The translations under genes and the position numbers were made by a program. From an uncultured Pseudomonadota bacterium (GTDB lineage: Bacteria; SAR324; NAC60-12): DNA of 22,558 nt. This document shows positions 1,191 through 19,129 of the stretch, one piece after another. The notes under the pieces were generated by a model. That model searched no databases. It worked only from the letters and a program-made list of their open reading frames with translations, and was not told the DNA's origin. Location: assembly GCA_913020725.1 (NCBI GenBank), contig CAJWCD010000051.1, forward strand, positions 1 to 22,558, given 5' to 3'. Every line of letters starts with the position of its first letter. The stretch's first letter is position 1.

Positions 1191-2240
1191 TCAGATCTGA
1201 GCATTCTCCGGGCGTAGCGGACGCAACTGTTTGCCGGCTTCCCACATTTCCTGCCCGTCGATCACTGCGAGTTCCTTTTCCAACTGCTGGCGGTAGTCGT
1301 CGCGGGAATTGGACTCAATGGCGATCTGTGCCTCAGTCCCGGCCTTGACGCTGTCATAACATTCCTGAATCACGGGCTTGAGCACTTTGTGGAACTTGGG
1401 AGCCCAGTCGAGCGCACCGCGCTGTGCAGTGGTCGAGCAGTTTGCGTACATCCAGTCCATGCCCTTCTGCGAAACCAGTGGGTAAAGGCTTTCCAACGCT
1501 TCCTCGATGGTCTCGTTGTACGCCTCGGAGGGGGAATGCCCCTGCTCGCGCAACACTTCGTACTGAGCGAGGAACGCGCCTTGGAGCATGCCCATCAGCA
1601 CACAGCGCTCGCCCGTGAGGTCGCTGTACACCTCCTTCTGAAAGCTCGTCTCAAAGAGGTGCCCGGAGCCAATCGCGAAGGCGGTGGCAATCGCTCGGTC
1701 ACGGGCCTTGCCGGTCGCGTCCTGATGAATCGCGAAGGAGGCGTTGATGCCGCGTCCGGCGAGAAAGTGGTTGCGCACCGTCAGTCCAGAGCCTTTGGGG
1801 GCGACGAGGATGACATCGAGGTCGCTCTTGGGTACGATGCTCGTGTGCTCCTTGAAGATAATTCCGAAGCCGTGCGAGAAGTAGAGTGCGTTGCCGGGCT
1901 GGAGCTTGGACTGCACCATCGGCCACATCTGGATCTGTCCGGCATCCGAGAGCAGGTATTGGAGAATCGTTCCTCGTGTGGCGGCTTCCTCGATTTCAAA
2001 GAGCGTTTCGCCCTCAACCCAGCCGTCGGCCAGCGCCTTGTCCCAACTGCGTCCTCGGCGCACTCCGAGGATCACCTTGAAGCCCTGATCGCGCATGTTC
2101 AACCCCTGTCCTCGTCCTTGAGGTCCGTAACCGAGAATCGCCGTCACTTCCTCGTCGAGGATGCTCTTGCAGCGCTCTATCGGATAATCCGTGCGCTCGA
2201 TAATGATTTCCGAATGGCCGGCGATGTTGATCTCCTTCAT
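1191..2240 (-). CDS. ilvC: Ketol-acid reductoisomerase, Ilv5/Bacteroidota-like type
   Basis: GYGPQGRGQGLNMRD Rossmann motif, LLSDAGQ, FSHGF, VAPKGSG, SDLTGERCVLMG, GMDWMYANCSTTAQRGALDW; AAGGAG RBS upstream of ATG 2240. Confidence 0.97.
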   Translation of the reverse strand: MKEINIAGHSEIIIERTDYPIERCKSILDEEVTAILGYGPQGRGQGLNMRDQGFKVILGVRRGRSWDKALADGWVEGETLFEIEEAATRGTILQYLLSDAGQIQMWPMVQSKLQPGNALYFSHGFGIIFKEHTSIVPKSDLDVILVAPKGSGLTVRNHFLAGRGINASFAIHQDATGKARDRAIATAFAIGSGHLFETSFQKEVYSDLTGERCVLMGMLQGAFLAQYEVLREQGHSPSEAYNETIEEALESLYPLVSQKGMDWMYANCSTTAQRGALDWAPKFHKVLKPVIQECYDSVKAGTEAQIAIESNSRDDYRQQLEKELAVIDGQEMWEAGKQLRPLRPENAQI

Positions 2241-2457
2241 CGAATTGCTCCTTGAATGTGCAGTGAATGGGACGACTCTGTCCCGGATTTGGTTATTCCA
2301 AATACGATGGCGGGCAGTGGGGGGAAAGTCAATCCAATCAAGCATGACGGGATCCTCTTGAGCAATCTGAGGCTGAGGCTCTCCGGAAGTGGTCCGGGGG
2401 GAGTGTTTCCTGCAACTCTGAAACGCCGCAAGGTGCTGTGAGCAGACGAAGCCAGCC

Positions 2458-3210
2458 TCACGCTTTGATGTTGATGCGGCTACCTTGCTGCTCGACCTGC
2501 TGGGTTTCTTCTTGCAGGCCGACGAGTCCGCCGAGCTGACTGATCATCTCGATCGCTCCGAAGAGCAAATGCTCCTCGCCCTGATCCTCCATCATTTTGG
2601 CAAAAGAGCGGTGGACGGACTCGGTGGATTCCATCAGGCGGGCGAACTGGGGTTGTTTGAGAAGGGCGAACGCCTTGAGTTGATCATCCTCATCGCGTAT
2701 GAAATCGGCAAGCTCCTCGCCCAATTCATTAATGTTGTCGAGATCGAGGCGTTTGTATTCCGGAAGTCCCTCGATCTGCTTGCGGGTTTCGTTGGTGAGT
2801 TCACGGATGCGGGTGTGAACGGCGTTGCCAAACTGCTCTGCGGCCTCGGGCTCCAGCAATTGCTTGCGGGCGACGTTTTCGTAGCTGGAGACGATCATGC
2901 CGTAGGAGCGGCGGATGGTCATTGTCTCGCCATGCGATTGTGGCGAGCGGATGTTGTTCGCTTTGCTGTCACGCGGCATCTTCTGCTTACCGATCTGCGG
3001 CGACATTTCCGCCATACGCTTGCCCTCACGCTGCACCGACTCCGAGATTTCCTGCTCGGTTTGCTTGGGTTTAACAGAGGTTTTCGCGTCCTTGGCAGAG
3101 GGTGGATTTCCTGCTGTGGGCTTGGCCTGCTCCACGTCCGGCTCGGAGTCCGCCGACTTTGTGGCATTGGGCGTGGCGGGCGTGGCGGTCTTTTGGGAGG
3201 AAACTTGCAT
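2458..3210 (-). CDS. Hypothetical protein, 250 aa
   Basis: Long ORF with a low-complexity N-terminus, helical core and C-terminal GSRINIKA tail; start uncertain (no clear RBS). Confidence 0.7.
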   Translation of the reverse strand: MQVSSQKTATPATPNATKSADSEPDVEQAKPTAGNPPSAKDAKTSVKPKQTEQEISESVQREGKRMAEMSPQIGKQKMPRDSKANNIRSPQSHGETMTIRRSYGMIVSSYENVARKQLLEPEAAEQFGNAVHTRIRELTNETRKQIEGLPEYKRLDLDNINELGEELADFIRDEDDQLKAFALLKQPQFARLMESTESVHRSFAKMMEDQGEEHLLFGAIEMISQLGGLVGLQEETQQVEQQGSRINIKA

Positions 3211-3429: not shown

Positions 3430-6400
3430 ATGACCACACCGATGCCTGACAACACCCCTACTCCGCGACGCCTCGCCGATTGCCCCATCGCAATCGTAGG
3501 CATGTCCGCTCTCTTCCCCGGCGCTCCGGACCTTGAGCACTACTGGGACAATATCCTCAAGAAGGTGGACAGCATCATTGAGGTTCCGGAGTCGCACTGG
3601 GAGATCGCAGATTACTACGACAAGGATGCCAGTGCCCCCGACAAGACTTACAGCCAGCACGGCGGGTTCATTCCGGAAGTTGATTTCGATCCGATGGAAT
3701 TCGGCATCCCGCCGAACCTGCTGGAGCAGACCGATTCCTCGCAACTGCTGGGATTGCTTGTCGCCCGCACCGCCTTGGAAGACGCTGGCTACATAGAGGC
3801 GACCGCTGCCCTCCGCGAGCGCACGGGCGTGATCCTTGGCGTGACCGCCGGCATGAAACTGCTGGGGTCGCTCAATTCGCGGCTTCAGTACCCGATCTGG
3901 GAGCAGGTGCTGCGCAAGTCCGGACTTTCCGAAGACGAAACCACAAAGGTTGTGGAAAAGCTCAAGGCCGCGTATGTGAAGTGGGAGGAGGCTTCGTTTC
4001 CGGGACTGTTGGGCAACGTCATCGCCGGGCGCATCGCCAATCGTCTCGACCTTGGCGGCACCAATTGCACGGTTGATGCCGCCTGCGGAAGCTCACTTGC
4101 CGCGATGAAGATGTCGGTCAACGATCTCGTGGACGGGCGCGCCGACATGATGATCACAGGTGGAGTTGACACGGACAACTCCCCGTTCATGTACATGTGT
4201 TTCAGCAAAACACCTGCGTTCACCAAAGATGATCGTGTGCGCCCCTTCGATGCTGAATCCAAAGGCATCCTGATCGGCGAAGGCTTGGGCATGGTGGTCC
4301 TCAAACGACTCGCGGATGCAGAGCGTGACGAGGATCAGATCTACGCCGTCCTCAAGGGCATCGGCTCCTCCAGCGATGGGCGTTTCAAAAGCATCTACGC
4401 CCCTCGTGCTTCCGGACAGGCCCGCTGTCTGCGTCGTGCCTATGAGGATGCCGGAGTCGCACCGAACAGCATTGGCCTCATTGAAGCGCACGGCACCGGA
4501 ACTGCTGCCGGGGATGTCACGGAATTTGAGGGACTGCGTGAGGTTTACTCCGCAGCCGCAGTGCCTGCACAATCGGTCGCTCTTGGCAGCATCAAGTCGC
4601 AAATCGGTCACACCAAAGCCACCGCTGGAGCTGCCGGACTCATCAAGACCGCGCTTGCGCTGCACCACAAGGTGCTGCCCCCGCTCATCAATCTGGAGCA
4701 GCCCAATCCCAAGCTCGATGTCGCCAACTCCCCGCTCTATCTCAACAGCGAAACCCGCCCGTGGATTACCACTGGTGCTCCGCGTCGTGCGGGCGTGAGT
4801 TCTTTCGGGTTCGGCGGCACCAACTTCCATTTTGTGCTGGAAGAATATCAGGCCGCGCAAACGCAAGCCTTCCGGATGCAGTCGACTCCCAAACTGGTGC
4901 TGGTTTCCGCAGAATCTCCGGACGCCCTGAAGGCACGGTGCCAAGAGTTGGTCGGACGCCTCGGTGGTGACGAGGGCGAGCAAGCGTTCCGGGAATTGGC
5001 AACGGCTTCTGTTGAGCAACAACCCGCGCAAGCACACGCACGGCTTGGGTTTGTCGCCGAAAATGCGACCGCTGCCGCAGATGCTTTGCAAACGGCTTTG
5101 ACCACCTTCGAGAAAAAACCGGAGGACGAGGCGTGGTCACTCAAGGGCATTGCTTTCCGCAAGCAGGGCATGGACCCCAAGGGCAAGGTGGTCGCGCTCT
5201 TCTCCGGACAGGGTTCGCAGTACCTCAACATGGGGCGCGAACTCTTCCTGAATTTCCCGCCGCTGCTGGAGCCTTATGGCCAAATCAACACGCGGTTTCA
5301 GGATTCCGGACAAACGCCGATCTCACAGATCGTCTTTCCTCCACCTGCGTTTGATGATGACACCAAGCAGGCACAGGATTCCGCCCTGCAACTCACTCAA
5401 CACGCGCAACCGTCCCTTGGCGGATTCAGTGCCGGACTCTTCAAACTCCTGAAAGCCGCCGGATTCCAAGCGGATTTCACTGCCGGACACAGCTTTGGGG
5501 AACTGACCGCGCTCTGGGCTGGAGGTGTGATTTCTGAAGAGGATTACTACACGCTCGCCTACGCCCGTGGACAGGCGATGAAGGCTCCTGACGATCCGGA
5601 TTTCGACGCAGGCACGATGATGGCGGTGATGGGCAAGCTCGAAAATCTGGAGGACGACCTCAAGGAATTCCCGGATGTGGTGATGGCGAATCTCAATTCA
5701 CCTAAACAGATGGTTGTCGCTGGACCCAAAGCTGTGGTGCAGGACGCTCATGCGGCACTCAAGGCGAAAAAATACAATGCCGTGCTGCTGCCCGTTTCTG
5801 CTGCCTTCCACACTCCGCTCGTGGGTCACGCACAAAAGCCTTTTGCCAAAGCCATCCGCGCCGTGAAATTTCAGAAACCGAAAATTCCGGTCTTCTCGAA
5901 CACGACCGCCAAAGCGTACCCGGACGATCCCAAGGCGATCCAGCAGCAATTGGAGGAACACATCCTCAACTCTGTGCGTTTCCGCGAGGAGATCGAAAAC
6001 CTCCATGAAGCCGGAGGGCGGGTTTTCGTGGAGTTCGGTCCGAAGAACGTCCTCACCAAGCTGACGGAAGCGGTTTTGTCCGGGAAGGACTTCAGCGCTG
6101 TTGCGCTCAACGACAGTCCAAAGAAGAACAGTGATCAGCAATTCCGGCAAGCGGTCGCGCAATTGTGCGTCCTCGGCTTGCCGTTGCAGGGTTACGACCC
6201 TTACGGGTGGGAACGCACCAAGCCCAAACGCAAGCGTTCGCCGTTGACGATGCCGATGAGCGGAGCAAACTATGTCAGCGCGGCGACCCGCAAAGCTTTT
6301 GACGATGCCATGAACGACGGTTTCCAGATCAAATCCGGCGGTTCCGGTTCCGGCAATGCCCCGGCGACTCCGAGTGCGATGCCCGGCAGATTCACGCCAC

Positions 6401-7941
6401 CACCCAGTTCCATGGCCGCTGCTCCGGCGCAACCCAAACCTGCGACCGTTGCCACACCCTCCAGCAGTGCGGCCCCAAGTGTTTCACCAAGTCCTGTTTC
6501 CATGACTCAACCAACAACCCCCATGACCGTCTCTTCCGTTGCACCTTCCGGAGTGGACGCCGCCGGGATTTACCAATATCAGCAATCCGCCCTTCAGGTT
6601 CATCAGCAGTATCTGCAACAGCAGGGCGAGTATTCCCGGACAGTGTTGCAACTGCTTCAGCAGCAACTGCAACTCGTCTCGCAAGGCCAAGCGATCCCGG
6701 AACCGGTGTCACAGAGCATGCAATGGTTCCACGCGCATCAAGGCGAAACCCTGCGCGTGCATGAGCAATACCTCCAGCAACAGGCAGAGCAGATGCGGGC
6801 CATCACTGGAACTGCCCCACTTGCTTCCCCTGTTGCTCCTGTTGCGGCTCCCGTTGCCATCTCGGCCCCACAGCCGCAACTCATGCCTGTGGCTCCGGCA
6901 CCAATGGCTGCCCCGCCGATGATGCCGCAGCCGACGATTCCGGCTCCGCAAGTCACTACGGCTTCGGCTCCAGCCCAACTTCCGTCCGCCACACCTGTGG
7001 CTCCAGCCGAACCTGCAGAAGACGTGGAGTCCGTGTTGTTGAGCGTGGTTGCCGAAAAAACAGGCTATCCCCGCGAAATGCTCGAAGCCGGAATGGACCT
7101 CGAAGCCGACCTTGGTGTTGATTCCATCAAGCGCGTCGAAATCCTCGGAACATTGCAAGATCAGATTCCCGAACTGCCGACCATCCGGGGCGAAGAATTG
7201 GGCGAATTGCGCACCCTCGCACAAATCACCGACTACCTCAAAAACCAGCTTCCAGAAACCAGCGCGGGTGTGCCACCCCGTGCTTCCGAGGTTCCGGCTC
7301 CGGAGGCGAATGCTTCCAGCGGCAGCGATCCTGCCGCAGCTTTGCAGGCAGTCATCAGCGAGAAAACGGGTTATCCTGTCGAAATGCTGGAGCTCGGCAT
7401 GGAGTTGGAAGCCGACCTTGGCGTTGACTCCATCAAGCGTGTTGAGATCATGTGGGCGATTCAGGAAAAATTTCCGGAACTGCCGCCGATCAACAATGCC
7501 GAGGTTGCCGAACTGCGCACCCTCCAGCAAATCACAGATCACCTGCAAGCCAACCTCTCAAAAACTCCAATCAACGGGGGAGAGGCCACCAACGGTTCCG
7601 GAGAGGACAGCAGCAACGGACACACGGTTTTCCAGCCGGATGTTGAAACACTGAGCAGCAACCTGTTGGCGATCATCGCAGAAAAAACCGGCTACCCCAC
7701 GGACATGCTCGAACTCAGCATGGACCTTGAAGCCGACCTTGGGGTTGATTCCATCAAGCGCGTCGAAATCATGTGGGCGGTGCAGGAGAAATTTCCGGTC
7801 CTCCCGCAACTCAACAACAGCGAACTCGGCGAACTGCGCACCCTCCAGCAAATCATTGACCGCCTCGCCACCGAACTGCCCGGACTCCCCACGGCGGCAC
7901 TGGGCGCATCCCCGGCAACAGCGCAAAAAAAAAACCTTTAG
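3430..7941 (+). CDS. pfaA: PUFA synthase PfaA-like, N-terminal part: KS - MAT - Gln/Pro/Ala linker - 3x ACP
   Basis: KS DAACGSS, EAHGTGT, GHTKATAG; AT GQGSQY, GHSFGE, SAAFH; three LEADLGVDSIKRVEI ACP motifs; ends AQKKNL* at an A10 run. Confidence 0.93.
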   Translation: MTTPMPDNTPTPRRLADCPIAIVGMSALFPGAPDLEHYWDNILKKVDSIIEVPESHWEIADYYDKDASAPDKTYSQHGGFIPEVDFDPMEFGIPPNLLEQTDSSQLLGLLVARTALEDAGYIEATAALRERTGVILGVTAGMKLLGSLNSRLQYPIWEQVLRKSGLSEDETTKVVEKLKAAYVKWEEASFPGLLGNVIAGRIANRLDLGGTNCTVDAACGSSLAAMKMSVNDLVDGRADMMITGGVDTDNSPFMYMCFSKTPAFTKDDRVRPFDAESKGILIGEGLGMVVLKRLADAERDEDQIYAVLKGIGSSSDGRFKSIYAPRASGQARCLRRAYEDAGVAPNSIGLIEAHGTGTAAGDVTEFEGLREVYSAAAVPAQSVALGSIKSQIGHTKATAGAAGLIKTALALHHKVLPPLINLEQPNPKLDVANSPLYLNSETRPWITTGAPRRAGVSSFGFGGTNFHFVLEEYQAAQTQAFRMQSTPKLVLVSAESPDALKARCQELVGRLGGDEGEQAFRELATASVEQQPAQAHARLGFVAENATAAADALQTALTTFEKKPEDEAWSLKGIAFRKQGMDPKGKVVALFSGQGSQYLNMGRELFLNFPPLLEPYGQINTRFQDSGQTPISQIVFPPPAFDDDTKQAQDSALQLTQHAQPSLGGFSAGLFKLLKAAGFQADFTAGHSFGELTALWAGGVISEEDYYTLAYARGQAMKAPDDPDFDAGTMMAVMGKLENLEDDLKEFPDVVMANLNSPKQMVVAGPKAVVQDAHAALKAKKYNAVLLPVSAAFHTPLVGHAQKPFAKAIRAVKFQKPKIPVFSNTTAKAYPDDPKAIQQQLEEHILNSVRFREEIENLHEAGGRVFVEFGPKNVLTKLTEAVLSGKDFSAVALNDSPKKNSDQQFRQAVAQLCVLGLPLQGYDPYGWERTKPKRKRSPLTMPMSGANYVSAATRKAFDDAMNDGFQIKSGGSGSGNAPATPSAMPGRFTPPPSSMAAAPAQPKPATVATPSSSAAPSVSPSPVSMTQPTTPMTVSSVAPSGVDAAGIYQYQQSALQVHQQYLQQQGEYSRTVLQLLQQQLQLVSQGQAIPEPVSQSMQWFHAHQGETLRVHEQYLQQQAEQMRAITGTAPLASPVAPVAAPVAISAPQPQLMPVAPAPMAAPPMMPQPTIPAPQVTTASAPAQLPSATPVAPAEPAEDVESVLLSVVAEKTGYPREMLEAGMDLEADLGVDSIKRVEILGTLQDQIPELPTIRGEELGELRTLAQITDYLKNQLPETSAGVPPRASEVPAPEANASSGSDPAAALQAVISEKTGYPVEMLELGMELEADLGVDSIKRVEIMWAIQEKFPELPPINNAEVAELRTLQQITDHLQANLSKTPINGGEATNGSGEDSSNGHTVFQPDVETLSSNLLAIIAEKTGYPTDMLELSMDLEADLGVDSIKRVEIMWAVQEKFPVLPQLNNSELGELRTLQQIIDRLATELPGLPTAALGASPATAQKKNL
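7021..7880 (+). repeat. Three tandem ACP domain repeats
   Basis: EKTGYP..MLE..M.LEADLGVDSIKRVEI....ELRTL.QI three times (~7021-7254, ~7336-7560, ~7645-7880); DNA repeat gaagccgaccttggNgttgaNtccatcaagcg. Confidence 0.9.
7925..7941 (+). other. Candidate -1 frameshift / transcriptional slippage site
   Basis: GCG CAA AAA AAA AAC CTT TAG; A10 at 7925-7934; A_AAA_AAC at 7929-7935 in the correct phase; the -1 frame is open 7860-10478. Confidence 0.6.
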
Positions 7942-10478
7942 CGCCTGAGTCGGCTTACTCCGTCACAGTCAACCGACCACGCCTGCTCACCCTGCCCGCA
8001 CCGGATCGCCTCGAATCGGCGCTTCCGGACACCCCAACCTGCTTGCTCACCGATGATGGCACCGCGCTGACTCCCGCCGTCGCGTCACGACTTCAGCAGG
8101 AGGGTTGGACGGTGCTGCTCTGGCGCGTTCCCGGAATCACCAACAAAACCTCCCCTCCCTTTGAAAAAGGGGAAATCCCTCCCGTCCCCCTTTTGCTAAA
8201 GGGGGGAGGCGTAGCCGGAGGGATTTCGGAACGCCGTGAGTTTCCCGCCAATCTCCAAATTCTTGAACCGGAATCGCTGGACGATTCTGCAATTGCCGCG
8301 ACCCTCGCCAAAGCCGGAGCAGCGATCGGCAGCTTCCTGCATCTGCATCCTCCCGCAAATCCGGAATCTGCTGCACTGAATCTTGATGCCGGAGCCAACA
8401 CCTTGGTGCAGCATGTCTTTTTGCTCGCCAAGCACCTTCAACCCAAACTCACTGCTCCAACGGATTCCGGACGACGGTATTTCGTCTGTGTGGTCCGTCA
8501 GGACGGGCAGTTGGGCACCTCCGGAACCGGAATCAACGCAGTGGCCGGAGGGCTTTCCGGATTGACGAAAACCCTGCAAATCGAGTGGCCCACCGCCTTT
8601 TGCCGCACCGTGGATCTTGCGCCGGAGTTGACCGCAGAGGAAGCCGCCCAACGGCTTACCGCAGAACTGGCCGATCCCGATGGACAGACGCAGGAAATCG
8701 GCTGGAGTCCGCAAGGGCGCGTGGCGTTGCTTCCAGAAATCGCGGACATGGCCCACGAGGCGCAGGTGCCTTTTCCGAAAAAACCCGTCTGGCTGGTGAG
8801 CGGCGGGGCACGGGGCGTGACCGCCGCTTGTGTGCTGGAACTCGCCCGTCGGCACCCCGGAACCTTCCTGCTGGCCGGACGCTCTCCGTTAGAAGATGAA
8901 CCACAATGGGCTTCCGGAATCGTGGAGGATGCTGCGCTTCGACAAGCTGCAATGCAAGCGCTGCAAGTCGCAGGTGAAAAACCGACCCCGGTGAAGGTTC
9001 GGCACCTCGTGGGGCGCATCAACGCAAACCGTGCCATTCGTGCCACGCTGCAACAGCTTCAGGATTCCGGCAGCACCGGAGTTTACGTCAGTGCCGATGC
9101 CACTGAGGCCACCAAACTCCGTGAGGCGATTGCTCCGCACGTTCAGCAGCAGGGTGCAATCACGGGCGTGATCCACGGCGCGGGGGTGCTAGCTGACAAG
9201 CTGATTGAAAAGAAAACCGCGCAGGATTTCGATGCGGTTGTCGGCACCAAGGCGCACGGACTCAGAGCTTTGCTGGACGCCATTGACCCAAAACAACTTT
9301 CGCACTTGCTGCTGTTCTCGTCTGCCGCTGGATTCTATGGCAACGGCGGGCAGTCCGATTACGCCATCGGCAACGAAATCCTCAACTGCGCCGCACTTGC
9401 GTTTCAGCAAAAACACCCAGATTGCCATGTGGTGTCCTACAACTGGGGGCCGTGGGAAGGCGGCATGGTTACGCCGGAACTCAAGCGCATGTTCGAGGAG
9501 CGCGGGGTGCAGGTGATTCCAGTTGCGGACGGAGTGCGCATTTTTGCCGATGCTGCTGAAAATCGCGGGCATGACCCGCTGCTATTGATTGGGAATTCGC
9601 TGGCAGCACAGTACGAGCCGCCTCCGGAAGTCAAGCGGACTCGCCGGGCTACACGGACACTGACCGCCGCACAAAACCCGGTACTCGTAGATCATATGAT
9701 TGGCGAACACGCCGTAGTTCCTGCGGTCTGTGCGTTGGGCTGGATGGCAGAGGCTGCGGAGCAACTGGCGCCTGGATACCGTCTGGAGGCCTGTGAGGAT
9801 TTTCAAGTGCTGAAGGGCATCGTCTTCGACGATTCGCTTGCAGAATACTACCAACTTGAATTGGCAGAAGTTGAGCGCGAATCTGGAACCCGCAGCGTGG
9901 TGGTGGCGACGATCACCAGTTCCGGCGGAAAACTTCCACGCCCACACTACCGCACCCGCTTGCACCTCACTAAAGCTACGGCAGATTCACCGGTGAGCAA
10001 CCTGAAAACCGGAAACTGGAAACCGGAAACCGGAAACCGAAATTTTTACAAAAACGGCACCCTCTTCCACGGTCCCAAGTTTCAGGGCATTCTGCGGGTC
10101 GGGGAACTGACTGAACAACGCTTGCTCGCCGAGTGCCGAATGCCGACATGGTCTGACACCGAGCACGGACAGTTTCGAGCACGCCCGTTCAATCCCTACA
10201 CGCTCGATCCCGCGTTTCAGGCAATGTTGGTGTGGGCACGAGCGATCCACAACGCTGGAAGTTTGCCCCTGAAATTGGCACGGCTGGAACACTTTCAGGC
10301 GATCCCCTTTGACACGTCTTACCTGCTGGATCTGCGTGTCCAGAACCACTCGTCCACAGCCCTTGTTGCCGATCTTGACCTCGTGCTGGATGACGGACAA
10401 GTTGCAGCGCGGATGCTCGGAGCAGAAGTCACGCTCAGCAAAAACCTCAATGCCCTTTTCCTCAAAACTGCGGCATGA
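7935..10478 (+). CDS. pfaA: PfaA C-terminal part in the -1 frame: KR - PKS-type DH
   Basis: -1 frame reads PLAPESAYSVTVNRPRLLTLPAPDRLESALPDTPTCLLTDDG..., which is PfaA-like upstream of the called TTG (8043); KR GGARGVT, HGAGVLADK, FSSAAGFYGN.GQSDYA; DH DHMIGEHAVVP and LFHGP.FQG. Confidence 0.9.
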   Translation, partial: PLAPESAYSVTVNRPRLLTLPAPDRLESALPDTPTCLLTDDGTALTPAVASRLQQEGWTVLLWRVPGITNKTSPPFEKGEIPPVPLLLKGGGVAGGISERREFPANLQILEPESLDDSAIAATLAKAGAAIGSFLHLHPPANPESAALNLDAGANTLVQHVFLLAKHLQPKLTAPTDSGRRYFVCVVRQDGQLGTSGTGINAVAGGLSGLTKTLQIEWPTAFCRTVDLAPELTAEEAAQRLTAELADPDGQTQEIGWSPQGRVALLPEIADMAHEAQVPFPKKPVWLVSGGARGVTAACVLELARRHPGTFLLAGRSPLEDEPQWASGIVEDAALRQAAMQALQVAGEKPTPVKVRHLVGRINANRAIRATLQQLQDSGSTGVYVSADATEATKLREAIAPHVQQQGAITGVIHGAGVLADKLIEKKTAQDFDAVVGTKAHGLRALLDAIDPKQLSHLLLFSSAAGFYGNGGQSDYAIGNEILNCAALAFQQKHPDCHVVSYNWGPWEGGMVTPELKRMFEERGVQVIPVADGVRIFADAAENRGHDPLLLIGNSLAAQYEPPPEVKRTRRATRTLTAAQNPVLVDHMIGEHAVVPAVCALGWMAEAAEQLAPGYRLEACEDFQVLKGIVFDDSLAEYYQLELAEVERESGTRSVVVATITSSGGKLPRPHYRTRLHLTKATADSPVSNLKTGNWKPETGNRNFYKNGTLFHGPKFQGILRVGELTEQRLLAECRMPTWSDTEHGQFRARPFNPYTLDPAFQAMLVWARAIHNAGSLPLKLARLEHFQAIPFDTSYLLDLRVQNHSSTALVADLDLVLDDGQVAARMLGAEVTLSKNLNALFLKTAA
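8149..8227 (+). repeat. Hairpin repeat element (one partial plus one full copy), in frame in pfaA
   Basis: cctcccctccctttgaaaaagggg, then GAAATCCCTCC-cgtcccccttttgctaaaggggggaggcgtagcc-GGAGGGATTTC. Confidence 0.85.
10006..10040 (+). repeat. Heptamer tandem array (AAACCGG)x5
   Basis: aaaccgg aaactgg aaaccgg aaaccgg aaaccga, within the pfaA DH region. Confidence 0.9.
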
Positions 10479-11608
10479 GCCAAAATTGTGATTTTCTCGT
10501 GATCGGTGCGGGCATGGCCGGAGCCTCGGTCGCCTACCACCTTGCTGAACAGGGGAGCGTCCTCGTGCTTGAACAGGAACCGCAGCCGGGCTACCACAGC
10601 ACCGGACGCTCTGCCGCGCTCTATTCCGAAACCTACGGCAACGCAGCCATTCGTGCACTCACGACGGGTTCCGGTCCTTTCTACCGCAACCCGCCGGACG
10701 GATTTGCGGAGTATCCGTTGATCCAACCACGCGGGGTGTACTGGATCGCCCGCGAGGACCAGTTGGACACCCTGCAAAAAACTTATGACGAGATTCAGAA
10801 ATTTTGTTCGACCCTGCGCAAACTCGGCCCCGCCGAAGCCTTTGAGCGCGTTCCCGTGCTGCGTCCGGATTATGTGGCTGGAGTCGTGGAGGAACCGGAG
10901 GCACAAGACCTTGATGTGGATGGCATCCACCAAGGCTTTCTGCGCGGATTGCGACAGCGCGGCGGTTCTGTGATCACCGAGGCCGAGGTGCAATCCGGTG
11001 CATTCCAAGACGGAGTTTGGAGCATTGAAGCCGAGTCCGGACGCTACACCACTCCGGTCGTGGTCAACGCAGCGGGCGCATGGGGTGATGTCGTGGCCAA
11101 ACGCTGTGGCATCGCTCCGGTTGGGCTGGTTCCGAAACGCCGCACCGCCATGCTCTTTTCACCGCCGGAGGGCATGAGTTCCCGCAACTGGCCGCTCTTC
11201 GCCGATGTCGATGAGCAATTCTACGTCAAGCCGGAGGTGGAGCATCTGCTTGGCTCACCTGCCGACGAAACGCCATCCGAGCCGTGCGATGCGCGCCCAG
11301 AGGATTGGGACCTCGCTGTTGCTGCCGAACGTATTGGGCAGGCAACCACGCTGGAAATAGAGCGCATCTCCCGAAAATGGGCCGGACTGCGCACCTTTGT
11401 TGCGGACAAGACCCCGGTGGTGGGCTACGCTCCCGCACACGAGGGCTTCTTCTGGCTCGTTGGGCAAGGCGGCTACGGCATCCAGACCGCTCCGGCCCTT
11501 TCGAGAACCGCCGCTGCGCTAGTGCTGGGCCATCCCGTTCCGGACGACCTCACCGCCTTTGGCGTCCGCGCTGATGCCTTGTCGCCGGAACGACTGATGA
11601 TCCCCTGA
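10475..11608 (+). CDS. FAD-dependent oxidoreductase, D-amino acid oxidase family (DauA-like)
   Basis: VIGAGMAGAS dinucleotide-binding motif, QPGYHSTGRSAA, VVNAAGAW, WAGLRTF, GQGGYGIQT; ATGA overlap with the pfaA stop. Confidence 0.92.
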   Translation: MSQNCDFLVIGAGMAGASVAYHLAEQGSVLVLEQEPQPGYHSTGRSAALYSETYGNAAIRALTTGSGPFYRNPPDGFAEYPLIQPRGVYWIAREDQLDTLQKTYDEIQKFCSTLRKLGPAEAFERVPVLRPDYVAGVVEEPEAQDLDVDGIHQGFLRGLRQRGGSVITEAEVQSGAFQDGVWSIEAESGRYTTPVVVNAAGAWGDVVAKRCGIAPVGLVPKRRTAMLFSPPEGMSSRNWPLFADVDEQFYVKPEVEHLLGSPADETPSEPCDARPEDWDLAVAAERIGQATTLEIERISRKWAGLRTFVADKTPVVGYAPAHEGFFWLVGQGGYGIQTAPALSRTAAALVLGHPVPDDLTAFGVRADALSPERLMIP

Positions 11609-12004: not shown

Positions 12005-15000
12005 ATGCCTGAACCCATTGCCATCATCGGCCTAGCCTGCCTGTTTCCGGGGGCAACCACTCCAGAGTCTTTCTGGCAGAACCTGCTTGCCGGAGCCGAC
12101 TCCCGTACCGAGGCCACCGAGCGGCAGATGCACACCGATCCTGTGTGGTTCAAGGCCGACCGCAAGGGAGTCACCGACCGCTACTACTGCACGCAGGGCG
12201 GTTACATCCACGACTTCACCTTTGACCCGGAAGGCTTTCGTGTGCCAGCAGCACGGCTGGCCGGACTTGATGATGTCTTCCAGTGGCCGCTGCACGTCGC
12301 CCGTGAGGCGTTGCGTGACGCAAACTTGCTCGATGATCTGGAACGGCTCGCCCGCTGTGGGGTGATCCTCGGCAACCTCTCATTTCCAACGAAATCCTCC
12401 AACCACCTCGCCCTGCCGCTCTATCGTGAAGCGTTGGAGCCAGTGCTGCAAGACTTGCTGGGCCGTCCGGATTTCCGGCTGCCGGGATTTTCAGAAATCC
12501 CCCCCATCCCCCCTTTGCCAAAGGGGGGAGTAGAAGGAATTTCCGCATCGGGAAAAGGTGAGGCACCGGAAAACCTCGGCATCGCCGGGAAACCCGCCAC
12601 CTTGCTTGCCGAAGCTCTTGGACTCTCCGGGCGCAGCTACGCCTTGGACGCGGCCTGCGCCTCGTCGCTCTACAGCATCGGCCTTGCTTGTCACACCCTT
12701 TGGTCGGAAAGGTCTGATCTCATGCTCGCCGGAGCGGTGAGCGCGGCAGATCCGTTTTTCGTCAACATGGGTTTTTCAATCTTTCAGGCGTATCCGGAAG
12801 TTGGAAAAAGTCGTCCGCTCGACCGCACCTCCGGAGGCTTGTTTGCCAGCGAGGGTGCAGGAATGTTTGTGCTAAAACGACTCAGCGTCGCCGAGCGCGA
12901 CGGCGACCGCATCCACGCGCTGATTTCCGGAGTCGGCCTGTCCAACGACGGGCGCGGGCAATTCGTCCTCAGTCCAAACCCCAAGGGGCAGCAGTTCGCC
13001 TTTGAACGGGCCTATGCGAGTTCCGGGGTTGATCCGCAGTCGGTGGACTACATCGAATGCCACGCCACCGGAACCCCGCTTGGCGACAAAGTGGAACTCA
13101 ATTCGATGGAGGCGTTCTTTGGTAATTCCGGCACAGTCCCGCCCATCGGCTCGGTGAAATCCAACCTTGGACATATGCTCACCGCCGCCGGAATGGGCGG
13201 AATGACGAAGGTGATCCTCGCGCTTCAACAGGGTCGGATTCCGGGAACCATCCATGTCGAGCAACCACACAGTTCCGAAAACGGAACCTTTGCTGCCGAG
13301 CAGATTCTTCGTGAAACCACCGACTGGCCACACAACCGTCCGGAACGCCGTGCCGCTGTGAGTGCCTTTGGCTTCGGGGGCTGCAACGCGCATTTGATTT
13401 TGGAAAATTCCAGAGGGGCAAAGTTCCAAAGTTCCAAAGGGGAAAGGGGAGCCACCAAACCGACCACCGACCACCGACCACCGACCACCTCCTTGGCCAT
13501 CATTGGAATGGACGGCATCTTTGGAGAATTCAACGGAATCACTGCGATCCAACGGGCCTTCCTCAATGGAGAGCAAGCTTTCCGCAGCCTTCCGGAAACG
13601 CGCTGGCGTGGCCTTGGAATTGAGAGTTCCAAAAGTGATGGAGCCTCCACCAGACCGGAAACTGAAAACCGACCACCGACCACCCTGCAAGGAGCGTGGC
13701 TGGAATCCTTTGAAATGGATTTCCTGCGCTTCAAACTGCCCCCGAACCCACAGGAGCGGCTGATCCCGCAGCAGTTGCTGACGCTGGAAGTGACCGACCG
13801 CGCACTTCAGCAGACGAGTCTGAAAGCAGGCCAGAACGTCGCGGTGCTGGTGGCGATGGAGGCCGAACTGGAACTGCACCGCTTTCGGGGTCGAGTGAAT
13901 CTTGCCAAGCAAATCGAGGACGGATTGACCGTCTCCGGAGTCACACTCAGTGCCGAACAGCAAGTGGAATTGACGAAGCTCGCGCAGGATACTTTGTTGG
14001 ATGCAGTGCCGGTCAACCAGTTCACCAGCTTCATCGGCAACATCATGGCCTCGCGCATCAGTGCGCTCTGGGATTTCTCCGGCCCGGCATTCACGATCTC
14101 TGCCGAGGAAAACTCTGCACTCAAGGCGCTGGAGGTTGCACAAATGCTACTGGAGTCCGGTGTCGTTGAGGCGGCAGTGGTGGCGGCGGTTGATCTTGCC
14201 GGGAGTGCAGAATCGGTCATGTTGCGGGGTCGGGGGATGTCGCAGGGCTGGACTCCGGGAGAAGGAGCCGGGGCCGTGGTGCTGAAACCATTGGAGCAGG
14301 CCCAAGCCGATGAGGACATAATCCATGCCGTTGTGGAAGCGGTAGCCTTCGCACGGGAGGGCACTCCGGACTCGGTGGCTGTTTCGGCAAAAATTGCTTT
14401 GGAGTCTGCTGGGTTGACAGCGGATCAAATTGGTTTGGTCTCCCTGCACACCTCCGGAATTTCGGAGGTGGATGCAGCGACAGCAACCAGCCTTCAACAA
14501 ATTTATTCCGCAGCCGTGCTTAGCAGCGCTTCCGCTCACCTCGGCCACACCTTTGCTGCTTCCGGGATGGCTGCGCTTCTGCAAACGGTGGTCGCGCTGC
14601 GGCAGCGCACGATTCCCGGAATGCCCTCTGAATCCCGTCCGTGGTTCTGCAACGCCGGAGACGAACCACGCCGCGCCGCAGTGAGCAGTTTGGGGCAGGA
14701 TGGCTGTGCGGCGCACCTCGTGTTGTCGGAAACACAAATCTGCCCCGGCCCCACTTTGGCAAAGGGGGGGGATGATTCCGTGCCGATGAAGAGGGGAGGT
14801 GCATCCGTGGTGGAAACGGGCGGCATTACGATCATGCCCTTGGTAGCTGCGGATGTTTCTGGATTGAGAACACAGCTCGATGCGCTGGTGCAGGATTTAG
14901 GAGCCAACACCGCACTGCCCAAAATGGCGCGGCAAGCGTTTGAAACGCAACGCGAGGTGCAAGGTTCGTTTGCATTAGCACTGGTCGGGGACTCGTTGGA

Positions 15001-18000
15001 GGAACTGCGGCAAGAAGCGGAAGCGGCAAAGTCCGGGATCGAGGTTGCACTTGATTCGGGAGCAGATTGGGTGACTCCACGGGGCAGCAGTTTTTCGCCG
15101 CAACCGCTGGGGCCGGAAGGCAAGGTGGCCTTCACCTATCCTGGTGGGTTCAACAGCTACATCGGCAACAGCCGCACACTCTTCCAACTGGTTCCGGAAC
15201 TCCACGATTCTATGGGTTCCTACACCAACCGACTTGCTGATTTGTTGCATGACCACAAGCTCTATCCACGCTCGTTGCAGCGGCTTTCGGAGTCGGAAAT
15301 CGAGTGCTTGCAGGACGAGTTCGTCAACACGCCGATTGCAATGTTTGAAAGCGGAATCACTACCGGAGTGCTGCACACGCAGGCATTGCGGGAGGGTTTC
15401 GGACTCGAACCGCAGCTTGCGTTCGGCTACAGCATGGGCGAGGTGACGATGATGTTCGCGCTCGGCGTCTGGGGTCCAATGGACCCGATGAGCGACCTCC
15501 TCAACGTCTCTCCGCTTTTCAAGGAACGACTCTGCGGGCCGATGAACACCGTGCGCGAGGCGTGGGAGCTTGGCCCGGACGAGTTTCGGCAGGAAACGCT
15601 TTGGCAGTGGTACACCCTCCGCAGCACTCCGGAAGCCGCCCAAGCTGCCATTGACCGGGAGGAACGCGCTTACCTGATCCTCATCAACACCCCGCAGGAG
15701 GTTGTGATGGCCGGGGAGCCTGCTGCCTGTGAGCGCGCCGCGCAAACTCTGGGTGTGGAACCACATCCAATCCAAGTCACCGATGTCGTCCACTGCGCTC
15801 CCGTCAAGGCGGACTACGATGAAGTAAAGCGCGTCCACACCAATCCGGTGGTTTCCCAACCGGACATTCGCTTCTACTCCGCTGACACCTACGATGTCAC
15901 CGAACTGGACGCAGACGGACTAGGCGACAACATCGCCCGCATCTACGGGCGCACCGTTGATTACACCAAGCTCATCGAGGCGACCTACCGCGACGGCGCG
16001 CGGATTTTCGTCGATCTCGGTCCCCGCGTGAGTTGCGCGAAATGGATTGCCGAAACGCTGGGGGAGCGTCCGCACTTGGCTGTCGGCATGAGCCGCCGAG
16101 GAGTGGACGACCGCGTGCAGGTGATCCGGACGCTGGCCCGGCTTTACAGCCACCGTGTTCCACTCGACCTCGAACGGCTCTATCCGGAAGTTCCGGAACG
16201 CCCTGCCAAGCAACTCGTGCAGACCATCACGCTCGGCGGCGAGCCGATTCAGACGATTTGCGTGGAGGAAAACCGGGCGAAGTTCCGGGTAGCAGAAACA
16301 TTGGATTCACCGCAGAGGCGCGAAGAACACAGAGAAAATCCCCCCCGGCCCTCCTTTGCCAAAGGGGGGAGTGCTGCGTTGGTAGCGCAGGGCGGCGCAC
16401 CCGTGCTTGTCGGAGGACTTGGTGCTTATCCACATCAGGTCGATTCCGCGCATTCCGCCTTTCTTGGTCTGCGGCACGAAGGGCTGCGCCAAATGGCGGC
16501 GGCGATCCAACAACAAATGGGAAATCCTCAAGAAATCCCCCCCAACCCCCCTTTGTCAAAGGAGGGAGATGGCGATCACCCCGCAACCAAACCAAGCACC
16601 GAGCACCTCGCACCGAAAACCGAGCCTCCAATCTTCGACAAACAGGACTTGCTGGAATTCGCAGGCGGGAAGGTCGCCAATGTCTTTGGTCCAGAATACG
16701 CCGAGTACGACACTTTTCGGCGCTGTGTGCGGTTGCCGATGGAACCGTACCTGCTGGTGAGCCGTGTCACCAAGCTCGCTGCCAAGCGTGGTGTGCTTGA
16801 GCCTTCGACGATCACCACCGAGTACGACATTCCGGAAGATGCTTGGTACTGCACCGACGGGCAAATCCCGTGGGCGGTGGCGGTCGAGTCCGGACAGTGC
16901 GATTTGTTGTTGATCAGCTACCTTGGCATTGATTTCGAGAATCAGGGCGAACGCGTTTACCGTCTGCTCGACTGCACCCTCACCTACCTCGCAGACATGC
17001 CCCGCGCCGGGGAGACACTACGCTACGACATCTGTATCGATTCCTTCGCCCGTAGCGGCGGGACGCTGCTGTTCTTTTTCCGCTACGAATGCTTTGTCGG
17101 TGAGCGCATGGTGATGCGCATGGATGGCGGCTGTGCAGGTTTCTTCACCAACGAGGAACTGGCGGAAGGCCAAGGCGTGATTCGCACCGCCGCCGAAGTG
17201 GGGGCGCGGGCCAACGCTCGTAAGCTGCACTTCGAGCCGCTGCTGCGCTGCGAGAAAACCACCTTCACCCGCGAGGAATTGCTGGCACTCAGTTCCGGGA
17301 ATCCCGCACGCTGTTTTGGGGCGCACTACGCCCAGCCGGGGCGCAACCCCTCTTTGAAAACGGCTCCGGAACAGTTCCTCATGCACGACCGCATCGTCAA
17401 GCTCGACCGCAGCGGCGGACCGTGGGGTTGCGGCTTGGTGATCACTGAAAAAGACCTCGCTCCGGATCACTGGTATTTTCCTTGTCATTTCAAGGACGAT
17501 CCGGTGATGGCCGGTTCGCTGATGGCCGAGGGTTGTGTGCAGTTGATGCAGTTTTTCATGCTCGATCTTGGGCTGCAAACGCACACGCAGGACGCAACCT
17601 TCCAGCCGATCCACGGCATGTCGCAGATCGTGCGCTGCCGAGGGCAAGTGATTCCCAGTGATCCAAGGCTCACCTACCGCATGGAGGTCAAGGAAATCGG
17701 ACTCGAGCCGATCCCCTATGCCCTTGCCGACATTGACATCCTGCTCGGCGACCGCATTGTGGTGGACTTCCGCAACCTCGGTGTGCAGTTGGTTGAGAAG
17801 GGCAGCAGCTTCCGGCTCACCCAACAATGGTTCGAGCAGAACCCCGACCGTCCGGCGTTGAAATCCCCCCTCAATCCCCCCTTTGCCAAAGGGGGGGAAG
17901 CGAAGCCGGGGGGATTTTTCCCTAATGAAAGAGGAGAGTTGCTAGCACAAACCGCAAACCGCACACCGCAAACCAAAAACATCGCAGACGACGCGCAACT

Positions 18001-19129
18001 TTGGGAATTCGCGCTCGGTGACGTGGCCAAGTGCATGGGTTCGGATTATGCGGTTTACGCCAATCGTCCCGTGCAGCGCAACCCCAACAGTGACCTGCAA
18101 CTGCTCTCGCGGGTGCAGAGTTTTACTGGAACACGCCGCAAGTTTGAAGAACCGATGCGTATCGTCGGCGAATACGATGTGCCTGCCGAGGCGTGGTACT
18201 TCCGGGACAACGCGCATCCCTCGCAACTGCCGTATGCGGTGCTGATGGAAATCGCGCTCCAGCCCTGCGGCTTCATCTCGGCTTACTCCGGTGCGCTTTT
18301 CCATTATCCGAATCTCGACCTGCACTACCGCAACCTTGACGGCAACGGTACGCTGCTCGCCGATCCGGATTTACGTGACAAAACCATCGTCTCCGAGATC
18401 ACCCTGAAAAGCACAGTCGCTTCTGGGAACACCATCATCCAAACGCATGACTTCGCACTCTTCGCTGATGGCAAAAAATTCTATTCCGGAGACACCGTGT
18501 TCGGCTATTTCACGGACGAAGCCCTGACGAATCAAGTGGGATTGGATGGCGGGAAGTTGGTTCCAGCTTGGCTGGAATCTGTAGGAACGGGTGATGCCCA
18601 CGAACAAACGGTCATTTGCTGGAATCTAGCCGAATCGTCCGAGCCATGCTTCCAAGCTCCGGAAGGTCGTCCGCACCAGCGTCTGGCGACACGGCAACTC
18701 AATTTGCTGGATGAACTCCGCATTGTTCCGGACGGAGGCAGTTCCGGGAAGGGTTACGTCTATGGCCTGCGCACGGTTGATCCGGAAGATTGGTTCTTCC
18801 CTTGCCATTTCCACCAAGACCCCGTGATGCCCGGATCGCTTGGCGTGGAGGCGATTCTTCAGGCCATGCAGGGCTTCGCGCTTCAGCAAGGGCTTGCCGA
18901 ACGTTTCCAGAATCCGCGTTTCGGCTGGGTGCAGAAACGCACCGCGTGGAAGTACCGGGGTCAGATCATCCGAGAGACGAAGCGGATGCAGCTAGAAGCC
19001 CATGTCACCGACGTGCAGGAACACCTTGATCAGACGGTGATCACTGCCAACGCCTCGCTCTGGCGCGACGATCTGCGCATCTACGAAGTCACGGATTTGC
19101 GCCTCGCCCTGCGGGAAGCGGCAGCTTAA
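12005..19129 (+). CDS. pfaBC: Fused PUFA synthase PfaBC-like: KS - CLF - AT - FabA-type DH/pseudo-DH pairs
   Basis: KS DAACASS, ECHATGT, GHMLTAAG; KS-like domain lacking the Cys (SAEENS); AT GYSMGE; two DH sites WYFPCHFKDDPVMAGSL and WFFPCHFHQDPVMPGSLG. Confidence 0.93.
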   Translation: MPEPIAIIGLACLFPGATTPESFWQNLLAGADSRTEATERQMHTDPVWFKADRKGVTDRYYCTQGGYIHDFTFDPEGFRVPAARLAGLDDVFQWPLHVAREALRDANLLDDLERLARCGVILGNLSFPTKSSNHLALPLYREALEPVLQDLLGRPDFRLPGFSEIPPIPPLPKGGVEGISASGKGEAPENLGIAGKPATLLAEALGLSGRSYALDAACASSLYSIGLACHTLWSERSDLMLAGAVSAADPFFVNMGFSIFQAYPEVGKSRPLDRTSGGLFASEGAGMFVLKRLSVAERDGDRIHALISGVGLSNDGRGQFVLSPNPKGQQFAFERAYASSGVDPQSVDYIECHATGTPLGDKVELNSMEAFFGNSGTVPPIGSVKSNLGHMLTAAGMGGMTKVILALQQGRIPGTIHVEQPHSSENGTFAAEQILRETTDWPHNRPERRAAVSAFGFGGCNAHLILENSRGAKFQSSKGERGATKPTTDHRPPTTSLAIIGMDGIFGEFNGITAIQRAFLNGEQAFRSLPETRWRGLGIESSKSDGASTRPETENRPPTTLQGAWLESFEMDFLRFKLPPNPQERLIPQQLLTLEVTDRALQQTSLKAGQNVAVLVAMEAELELHRFRGRVNLAKQIEDGLTVSGVTLSAEQQVELTKLAQDTLLDAVPVNQFTSFIGNIMASRISALWDFSGPAFTISAEENSALKALEVAQMLLESGVVEAAVVAAVDLAGSAESVMLRGRGMSQGWTPGEGAGAVVLKPLEQAQADEDIIHAVVEAVAFAREGTPDSVAVSAKIALESAGLTADQIGLVSLHTSGISEVDAATATSLQQIYSAAVLSSASAHLGHTFAASGMAALLQTVVALRQRTIPGMPSESRPWFCNAGDEPRRAAVSSLGQDGCAAHLVLSETQICPGPTLAKGGDDSVPMKRGGASVVETGGITIMPLVAADVSGLRTQLDALVQDLGANTALPKMARQAFETQREVQGSFALALVGDSLEELRQEAEAAKSGIEVALDSGADWVTPRGSSFSPQPLGPEGKVAFTYPGGFNSYIGNSRTLFQLVPELHDSMGSYTNRLADLLHDHKLYPRSLQRLSESEIECLQDEFVNTPIAMFESGITTGVLHTQALREGFGLEPQLAFGYSMGEVTMMFALGVWGPMDPMSDLLNVSPLFKERLCGPMNTVREAWELGPDEFRQETLWQWYTLRSTPEAAQAAIDREERAYLILINTPQEVVMAGEPAACERAAQTLGVEPHPIQVTDVVHCAPVKADYDEVKRVHTNPVVSQPDIRFYSADTYDVTELDADGLGDNIARIYGRTVDYTKLIEATYRDGARIFVDLGPRVSCAKWIAETLGERPHLAVGMSRRGVDDRVQVIRTLARLYSHRVPLDLERLYPEVPERPAKQLVQTITLGGEPIQTICVEENRAKFRVAETLDSPQRREEHRENPPRPSFAKGGSAALVAQGGAPVLVGGLGAYPHQVDSAHSAFLGLRHEGLRQMAAAIQQQMGNPQEIPPNPPLSKEGDGDHPATKPSTEHLAPKTEPPIFDKQDLLEFAGGKVANVFGPEYAEYDTFRRCVRLPMEPYLLVSRVTKLAAKRGVLEPSTITTEYDIPEDAWYCTDGQIPWAVAVESGQCDLLLISYLGIDFENQGERVYRLLDCTLTYLADMPRAGETLRYDICIDSFARSGGTLLFFFRYECFVGERMVMRMDGGCAGFFTNEELAEGQGVIRTAAEVGARANARKLHFEPLLRCEKTTFTREELLALSSGNPARCFGAHYAQPGRNPSLKTAPEQFLMHDRIVKLDRSGGPWGCGLVITEKDLAPDHWYFPCHFKDDPVMAGSLMAEGCVQLMQFFMLDLGLQTHTQDATFQPIHGMSQIVRCRGQVIPSDPRLTYRMEVKEIGLEPIPYALADIDILLGDRIVVDFRNLGVQLVEKGSSFRLTQQWFEQNPDRPALKSPLNPPFAKGGEAKPGGFFPNERGELLAQTANRTPQTKNIADDAQLWEFALGDVAKCMGSDYAVYANRPVQRNPNSDLQLLSRVQSFTGTRRKFEEPMRIVGEYDVPAEAWYFRDNAHPSQLPYAVLMEIALQPCGFISAYSGALFHYPNLDLHYRNLDGNGTLLADPDLRDKTIVSEITLKSTVASGNTIIQTHDFALFADGKKFYSGDTVFGYFTDEALTNQVGLDGGKLVPAWLESVGTGDAHEQTVICWNLAESSEPCFQAPEGRPHQRLATRQLNLLDELRIVPDGGSSGKGYVYGLRTVDPEDWFFPCHFHQDPVMPGSLGVEAILQAMQGFALQQGLAERFQNPRFGWVQKRTAWKYRGQIIRETKRMQLEAHVTDVQEHLDQTVITANASLWRDDLRIYEVTDLRLALREAAA
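12494..12543 (+). repeat. Hairpin repeat element inside the pfaBC KS domain
   Basis: gaaatcccccccatccccccttt-gcc-aaaggggggagtagaaggaatttc; encodes EIPPIPPLPKGGVEGIS. Confidence 0.85.
13404..13486 (+). repeat. Octamer-period array followed by (ACCGACC)x4
   Basis: aaaattcc agaggggc aaagttcc aaagttcc aaagggga (13404-13443); accgacc x4 (13459-13486); KS-CLF linker. Confidence 0.85.
13654..13681 (+). repeat. Heptamer array in the CLF domain
   Basis: accggaa actgaaa accgacc accgacc. Confidence 0.75.
14736..14777 (+). repeat. Degenerate hairpin repeat element
   Basis: aaatctgccccggccccacttt-ggc-aaaggggggggatgatt; encodes ICPGPTLAKGGDD. Confidence 0.7.
16336..16371 (+). repeat. Hairpin repeat element
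   Basis: aaatcccccccggccctccttt-gcc-aaaggggggag; encodes NPPRPSFAKGG. Confidence 0.8.
16532..16568 (+). repeat. Hairpin repeat element
   Basis: gaaatcccccccaacccccc-ttt-gtc-aaaggagggag; encodes EIPPNPPLSKEG. Confidence 0.8.
16591..16625 (+). repeat. Heptamer array in the AT-DH linker
   Basis: accaagc accgagc acctcgc accgaaa accgagc. Confidence 0.75.
17861..17917 (+). repeat. Full-length hairpin repeat element with 10-bp terminal inverted repeats
   Basis: AAATCCCCCC-tcaatcccccc-ttt-gcc-aaa-gggggggaagcgaagcc-GGGGGGATTT; encodes KSPLNPPFAKGGEAKPGGF. Confidence 0.88.
17951..17978 (+). repeat. Heptamer array between DH modules
   Basis: accgcaa accgcac accgcaa accaaaa. Confidence 0.75.

Follow-up and report, generated by a model that had tools for sequence, protein, structure and literature searches.

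How does a bacterium make a multidomain lipid synthase from a gene whose first reading frame stops in the middle, just past a run of ten adenines, while the second half is encoded in another frame? This question is raised by pfaA, which lies in a stretch of 22,558 nucleotides (contig C51, the window) of a SAR324 bacterium whose genome comprises 3.45 Mb in 204 contigs. By its domains, its active sites and its PfaB/C and PfaD partners, the locus is an iterative fatty acid synthase-polyketide synthase (PKS) of the PfaA or polyunsaturated fatty acid (PUFA) synthase type; pfa-like clusters also produce lipids other than PUFA (PMC3098273). The features of the junction are as follows.

3430..7941, plus strand: pfaA open reading frame (ORF) in the 0 frame, from ATG 3430 to TAG 7939-7941, with KS, MAT and three ACPs by Pfam; predicted no-slip product of 1503 aa, ~161 kDa.
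7651..7875, plus strand: third and last ACP domain.
7863..10478, plus strand: ORF in the -1 frame for the C-terminal half of PfaA, with pseudo-KR, KR and DH domains (Pfam KR and PS-DH).
7925..7934, plus strand: slippery run of ten adenines (A10), containing the in-phase heptamer A_AAA_AAC (7929-7935).
7939..7941, plus strand: TAG stop of the 0 frame, two codons past the run.
7946..7948, plus strand: TGA stop of the +1 frame, four codons past the run, terminating transcripts that have lost one A or acquired two.
7962..8027, plus strand: conserved start of the pseudo-KR, as judged from the alignment columns of 83 sequences; contains an L-P-x-P-D motif and a strand of 9 residues (predicted); upstream of the called start TTG 8043.

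The favored answer, at a rough probability of 0.6, is that slippage of RNA polymerase on A10 would let this one gene yield both a short KS-MAT-ACP3 protein and the full-length KS-MAT-ACP3-KR-DH PfaA. RNA polymerase would slip on the conserved run past the last ACP and produce mRNAs of varied A length. Transcripts with A10 and most other lengths would reach a stop within 2–4 codons and give the short form, while those with A8, A11 or A14 would give the long form; the latter would be a minority and the sole source of KR-DH for this synthase. That the junction is a conserved and real recoding site, programmed by slippage or by the ribosome, is highly probable.

When products are computed for run lengths of 7–14, A8, A11 and A14 give 2348–2350 aa and all others 1502–1506 aa, which includes the 1503 aa (no slip) and 2349 aa (one extra A) predicted in the initial annotation of this DNA. 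Its description of the 0 frame, ending at A10 and TAG with A_AAA_AAC in phase, is also reproduced on the sequence, while two of its positions have to be amended. The stop does lie just past the third ACP, at a distance of 21–24 codons and not 15–20, and the -1 frame is indeed open and PfaA-like, with KR and DH Pfam domains, only from 7863, as 7860–7862 is itself a stop codon. A10 is the sole A/T run of at least nine in the window and one of three A/T runs of ten in the genome.

The 0-frame ORF scores 1780 bits against TIGR02813 (cut-off 1010), and the -1-frame ORF, which alone falls below the cut-off, covers profile positions 1799–2582 at 590 bits, such that the two halves tile the profile. 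Catalytic motifs are intact in both, with the KS, MAT and ACP active-site motifs in the first half. The canonical single-chain PfaA (Type A/B, TIGR02813) has the same domains in the same order, but in one frame and without a run.

A start of its own for the second ORF would have spoken against recoding, and no conserved one is found. The conserved segment opens at 7962, 27 codons before TTG 8043 in the 83-sequence alignment, and the TTG encodes a core Leu. In the AlphaFold model of the KR-DH half (predicted local distance difference test, pLDDT, 90), a strand is found at residues 12–20 (pLDDT ~95), with TTG 8043 falling midway along the following strand; the modeled fold matches PKS pseudo-KR/KR didomains with an E value of 2e-25. 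An ATG occurs within the first 25 KR-frame codons in only 1 of 48 split alleles. The conserved Val that opens the segment is often GTG in Saprospiraceae and is GTC in the window. The missing ribosome binding site at TTG 8043 is uninformative: the site does score weakly (-3.2 kcal/mol), but the true starts of pfaA (-3.5 kcal/mol) and pfaBC (+0.4 kcal/mol) are equally weak, and the point has therefore been dropped.

The length of the run was checked in independent sequencing data. An independent DNA run contains a 1047-nt contig (depth 31.5) with 12 substitutions, no gaps and A10 at the junction, not the A11 that an assembly error would imply. A single RNA record, from one of three RNA runs, crosses the run (151 nt, depth 3) and reads A12; no record in the other two spans it, and contig depth cannot rank expression. 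The one RNA record (A12) and the one DNA contig (A10) differ in run length. Slippage predicts such a record, and this single one may reflect it; other possible sources are DNA, a variant strain, or an error in reverse transcription, PCR or sequencing.

Conservation within SAR324 is extensive. All 88 genomes of the phylum were searched with the KR half, and 51 matched. The junction is resolved in 48 alleles, one of them (L128) added from the pattern scan described below; the unresolved cases are two loci that start past the ACP and one (L017) that has A10 and a stop and no scored KR match. In 39 of the 48 alleles pfaA is split, always at -1 and always at A9–A11, and in most of these the 0-frame stop follows 1–3 codons past the run. 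Another seven are fused yet retain A10–A12, and the last two have a fused gene and no run, a state also seen in three paralogs. All 14 genomes of genus g12 are at -1, 13 of them with A9, and the longer runs in this genus (L033, L027) arose by substitution with the frame unchanged. Comparison of homologous pfaA genes had been proposed as a check, and in relatives the run is retained together with the stop in the 0 frame and the continuation at -1.

Beyond the phylum, GTDB genomes were scanned for ACP motifs with A9 a set distance further on. The resulting 72 loci come from Chloroflexota, Bacteroidota, Planctomycetota, Desulfobacterota, Nitrospirota, Elusimicrobia, Opitutae, Pseudobdellovibrionaceae, Pseudomonadota and SAR324; as the run and a single linker range were its selection criteria, this sample describes spread and not frequency. 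The A-run at the junction is more than chance, because the match lies after the last ACP in 72 of 72 loci, A9 follows none of the 98 ACP motifs further upstream in these loci, and only four other runs of at least nine A occur in their 217 kb.

Frequency was instead estimated from samples drawn by protein similarity alone, with each center genome dropped. Matching genomes numbered 15/400 in Gammaproteobacteria, 18/251 in Desulfobacterota, 36/201 in Planctomycetota (30 loci extracted), 4/301 in Flavobacteriaceae and 41/271 in Saprospiraceae (39 loci extracted), and 4 of 14 plasmid hits were included; in a phylum-wide Bacteroidota sample the center genome alone matched (1/401). Together with SAR324, these samples hold 84 split, 73 fused and 5 unresolved alleles. 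No split allele lacks a slip signal: 71 of the 84 have at least nine A (67 at -1, 4 at +1), and the other 13 have an in-phase -1 heptamer (A_AAA_AAG in 8, G_GGA_AAG in 2, A_AAA_AAA in 3), mostly with a hairpin 5–6 nt downstream (mean z -1.3). Among fused alleles, 11 of 73 keep a run of at least nine A.

The signal is patchy across phyla, because no resolved allele is split in the Desulfobacterota (0/19) or Planctomycetota (0/27) samples, each of which has one fused allele with at least nine A. In Gammaproteobacteria, 10 of 16 sampled loci are fused without such a run, and a split with a slip signal is found in 3/3 resolved alleles of Flavobacteriaceae and 34/37 of Saprospiraceae. A FastTree phylogeny of 164 KR sequences shows at least 11 switches of frame state among 102 run-bearing alleles, and 21 changes in the presence of the run compared to a shuffled mean of 50; the tree is midpoint-rooted with no support assessed and kin are not independent, so these counts describe and do not test. 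Two loci (L075, L079) had no clean frame call and were excluded from the tree and from the stop test given below.

Several relatives have unusual junctions. Persicobacter plasmids (L132, L207) carry G_GGA_AAG and a conserved hairpin at the junction. The gene is split in P. psychrovividus, while in Persicobacter sp. JZB09 it is fused without a run of at least nine A and retains G_GGA_AAG, a hairpin of -20 kcal and a -1 stop three codons on. Two split gammaproteobacterial alleles (L136, L139) have A7, a common two-part hairpin downstream and a Shine-Dalgarno (SD)-like sequence upstream (-8 to -9 kcal/mol), a layout that is also that of E. coli dnaX. A fused allele from Desulfobacterota (L165) has two A-runs, of 11 and 10, in one linker. 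Among cultured carriers, the gene is split in Desulfobacter vibrioformis, and in Flammeovirga it is fused and keeps the run. In Anaerolineales (L059, L062, L071 and others), an in-frame A9 lies past the last ACP, and the gene ends after the pseudo-KR (~240 codons), the catalytic KR having its own ATG. This second break was considered as a second slip site and rejected, being an ordinary gene start.

Assembly error is ruled out by the independent A10 contig and by the conservation among SAR324 genomes. A fragmented assembly of 204 contigs could invite the wider suspicion of an error or a decaying pseudogene, but this is scarcely credible given the same break in 39 genomes of the phylum, catalytic motifs kept in both halves and the presence of pfaD. 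A true pair of genes, with KR-DH initiated independently or by coupling and acting in trans, and with the run incidental, would agree with the description of Type D clusters as two genes (PMC3098273, PMC4882568), the little arachidonic acid obtained from Aureispira AmpfaA and AmpfaB in E. coli (PMC5067506), the separate ATG of the Anaerolineales catalytic KR further downstream and the frequent GTG of Saprospiraceae at the pseudo-KR start. Such a split, however, needs neither a slip signal in 84 of 84 alleles nor a fixed frame offset; the near absence of an early ATG and the location of TTG 8043 past the conserved motif and predicted strand, in the middle of a core strand, also make it most unlikely. 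Replication slippage, which would switch the synthase on in a subpopulation, has been raised as well, since A10 runs are mutable and alleles in all three frames occur across taxa. The idea of a phase-variable locus fits poorly and is very improbable: frame and length are stable within lineages such as g12, all 39 SAR324 splits are at -1, and the majority state of 39 genomes would leave the enzyme without an essential half. The independent DNA run also has no indel at the run despite variant contigs elsewhere in the stretch, although contigs drop rare variants.

The remaining alternative concerns mechanism. A programmed -1 ribosomal frameshift at A_AAA_AAC or A_AAA_AAA in the run would make both proteins while leaving the mRNA unaltered, and could act alone or take the major share beside slippage; this is the main rival and a serious one, though less likely. 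The heptamer is in phase, which is automatic for any run of at least nine A, and the uniform -1 frame of the SAR324 splits, the heptamers and mostly present hairpins of the 13 splits without a long run, and the Persicobacter signal retained in both split and fused alleles all agree with it; A_AAA_AAG and G_GGA_AAG are among the strongest frameshift motifs in E. coli (PMC4066793). At the window locus, however, no stimulator is found. The 3′ stem that had been suggested (gtcgg 7949-7953 with ccgac 7973-7977) is in the minimum-energy fold but does not stand out, as its z is +0.45 and 134 of 200 shuffles fold as well. The mean z in the window's genus is 0.05 (n=3; folds without pseudoknots), upstream SD sequences show no enrichment (37% vs 32%), and A_AAA_AAG occurs in 0 of 37 SAR324 split alleles. 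Runs of at least nine A are kept though 6–7 would suffice, and the signal is used independently of frame (67 alleles at -1, 4 at +1, 11 fused); the halves of the +1 alleles are out of reach of a -1 shift by the ribosome. Stops follow within 12 codons in both non-KR frames at 89 of 98 junctions, compared to 0.52 and 0.49 per frame at random positions. Slippage is therefore favored, because SAR324 split runs never fall below nine A, three frames are used, double stops are present, and A_AAA_AAG, hairpin and SD sequence are absent. Nine A is the slippage threshold (PMC5009743, PMC1088944), families shifted in both directions are the criterion for slippage of Antonov 2013 (PMC3711429), and Thermus dnaX likewise has nine A's with stops in both other frames (PMC5009743, PMC1088944). 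On the sequences compared, two hallmarks of programmed slippage, a conserved run of at least nine A in the coding strand and frame-independent use, are present here. The -1 bias also fits slippage, in which added A's are reported to occur in declining proportion from one upward. The earlier claim of slippage or frameshift is upheld as to recoding, with slippage the more probable of the two mechanisms at this locus.

Some observations weigh against polymerase slippage and a selected short form. Every run of at least nine A holds a -1 heptamer, and 80 of 84 splits are at -1. The 13 split alleles with heptamers instead of a long run probably mean that ribosomes do the job in some relatives. Mild 3′ structure is found in SAR324 genera g2, g3 and g5 (mean z -1.6 to -2.0) and in Saprospiraceae alleles with at least nine A (mean z -1.15, n=24). 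The absence of the run from 62 of 73 fused alleles means that the short form is not required family-wide, and the allele counts include kin that are not independent. The A12 transcript does not encode the long form, and it is a lone RNA record at depth 3. Two SAR324 alleles are irregular: L023 (genome G032) has a stop eight codons ahead of the end of the last ACP, upstream of an intact A9 junction, which may reflect inactivation or assembly error, and L006 has an N-gap in the last ACP.

Why would a short form be made at all? Split alleles cannot make KR-DH without recoding, whereas some fused alleles keep the run without this need, which suggests selection for the short form too. The run is retained in 11 fused alleles of the unbiased samples and in frame at 48 of the 72 loci from the scan, with close stops in both other frames (medians of 5 and 1.5 codons). 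Fused alleles keep it at up to 74% GC, and a third or more of the Lys codons in the window are AAG, so the constraint on the run lies on nucleotides. These in-frame alleles lend support to the two-isoform idea of the initial annotation. KS domains dimerize, and the short form, if selected, would probably supply extra malonyl-loaded ACPs and KS in mixed dimers, although this is a weaker conclusion than the recoding itself. The run and its frame would then set the carrier-to-reductase ratio. PUFA yield is set by ACP number (PMC5067506), and in tssM both forms and their ratio matter, with an inverted, in-frame allele also existing (PMC4256274). Replacement of AmpfaA with the fused SopfaA gave a 48-fold gain (PMC5067506), which fits the model and is not counted, as the ends of the cloned fragments are unclear. 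Because the signal is missing from the majority of fused alleles in Gammaproteobacteria, Desulfobacterota and Planctomycetota, the short form is optional across the family. At slightly better than even odds, the boundary between ACP and pseudo-KR is a family-wide recoding site at which one gene gives a loading/carrier and a reducing subunit, both needed, with default form and mechanism swapped between lineages; the pfaA1/pfaA2 and cyanobacterial pairs would then each be one recoded gene.

The remainder of the locus includes the following features.

8151..8232, plus strand: hairpin repeat element (-42 kcal/mol), in frame inside the pseudo-KR and not part of the recoding signal.
10475..11608, plus strand: DAO-family flavin adenine dinucleotide (FAD) oxidoreductase between pfaA and pfaBC, overlapping the end of pfaA by 4 nt.
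12005..19129, plus strand: fused pfaBC, KS-CLF-AT-DH-DH, 2374 aa.

The pfaBC product has two FabA domains and scores 132.6 bits against TIGR02816, slightly below the cut-off of 144.3; pfaD is above its profile cut-off and lies on a separate contig, C62. By its annotated domains, the locus has the Type D pfa layout, with a division between KS-AT-ACPn and KR and a fused pfaBC, and with 3 ACPs, not 5. The element at 8151–8232 adds ~27 residues that are disordered in the model and absent from two same-genus genomes. It belongs to a GC-rich hairpin repeat of ~80 nt, in frame in pfaA and pfaBC and also found near 12508, 14764, 16349, 16547 and 17876; a regular-expression search counts 25 copies genome-wide, many within long ORFs. 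We take this repeat to resemble coding-region palindromic elements. Divergent genes upstream of pfaA encode a ketol-acid reductoisomerase (1191–2345, minus strand) and a weak hemerythrin-like ORF under the cut-off (2458–3210, minus strand), and TPR proteins (19780–22419, minus strand) lie downstream of the pfa genes on the opposite strand.

The class of mechanism is known, and its use in PfaA-type synthases was not found in print. The dnaX gene, as proposed here for pfaA, gives a long and a short subunit (tau/gamma) from one gene at a domain boundary (PMC5009743, PMC3711429, PMC1088944). It uses slippage in some taxa (Thermus thermophilus, A9) and the ribosome in others (E. coli, A_AAA_AAG), includes a two-ORF form with A10, and occurs in layouts with either the long or the short form as the default, with stops in both other frames. 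However, dnaX encodes a replisome subunit and is experimentally shown, while pfaA encodes an iterative lipid megasynthase and is known here from sequence alone. In Citrobacter rodentium tssM1 (A11) and Yersinia pseudotuberculosis tssM3, an A-run precedes an early stop and slippage restores the long form (PMC4256274); these are two species and a secretion-system membrane protein, compared to many phyla and an enzyme for the pfaA run. Type D clusters (Psychroflexus torquis pfaA1/pfaA2, Aureispira marina pfaA/pfaB) have the same ACP/KR division and a fused pfaBC (PMC3098273, PMC4882568). They are published as two genes, while the window adds its 3 ACPs and inserted oxidoreductase; the comparison with these two species is by description only. 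Their families, Flavobacteriaceae and Saprospiraceae, carry the slip signal in the alleles counted above, and such a signal is predicted at the junctions of both species (AB980240 for A. marina).

A cyanobacterial counterpart, known from one record, pairs an Hgl-type KS-AT-ACP gene with a small pseudo-KR gene, the catalytic KR-DH being a further separate gene; the pair presumably corresponds to hglE/hglF. On a Nostoc flagelliforme plasmid (L131:8048-8056), A9 closes the type I PKS gene, and the ORF that follows, a "hypothetical protein" whose annotated start lies past the conserved strand, stays open through the run in the +1 frame. No report of frameshift or recoding in pfaA, PUFA synthase, polyketide synthase or hgl genes was found in print, subscription papers being thinly covered. 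The word frameshift is absent from the available portions of PMC3098273 and PMC4882568, which describe the halves as two genes; PMC11804610 and PMC5029812 hold nothing on frameshift, no cluster of this kind appears in the GeneTack paper (PMC3711429) or in two of its three supplementary files, and the Aureispira primer from the PMC5067506 supplement matches none of 248 loci.

Conserved recoding is rare in bacterial genes that are not mobile, and no case in a fatty-acid or polyketide megasynthase was found in print. If the proposal is true, "split" synthase annotations are wrong, as the false start of the second ORF drops a conserved strand, and the complex would hold an unrecognized short subunit, which bears on the balance between tandem ACPs and reducing domains. 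It would also provide a handle for PUFA engineering, since native split genes in E. coli would depend on the slippage rate of the host. Finally, cultured Persicobacter, Flammeovirga, Desulfobacter and Nostoc would offer a natural series like that of dnaX, in which to follow how slippage and ribosomal frameshifting replace each other.

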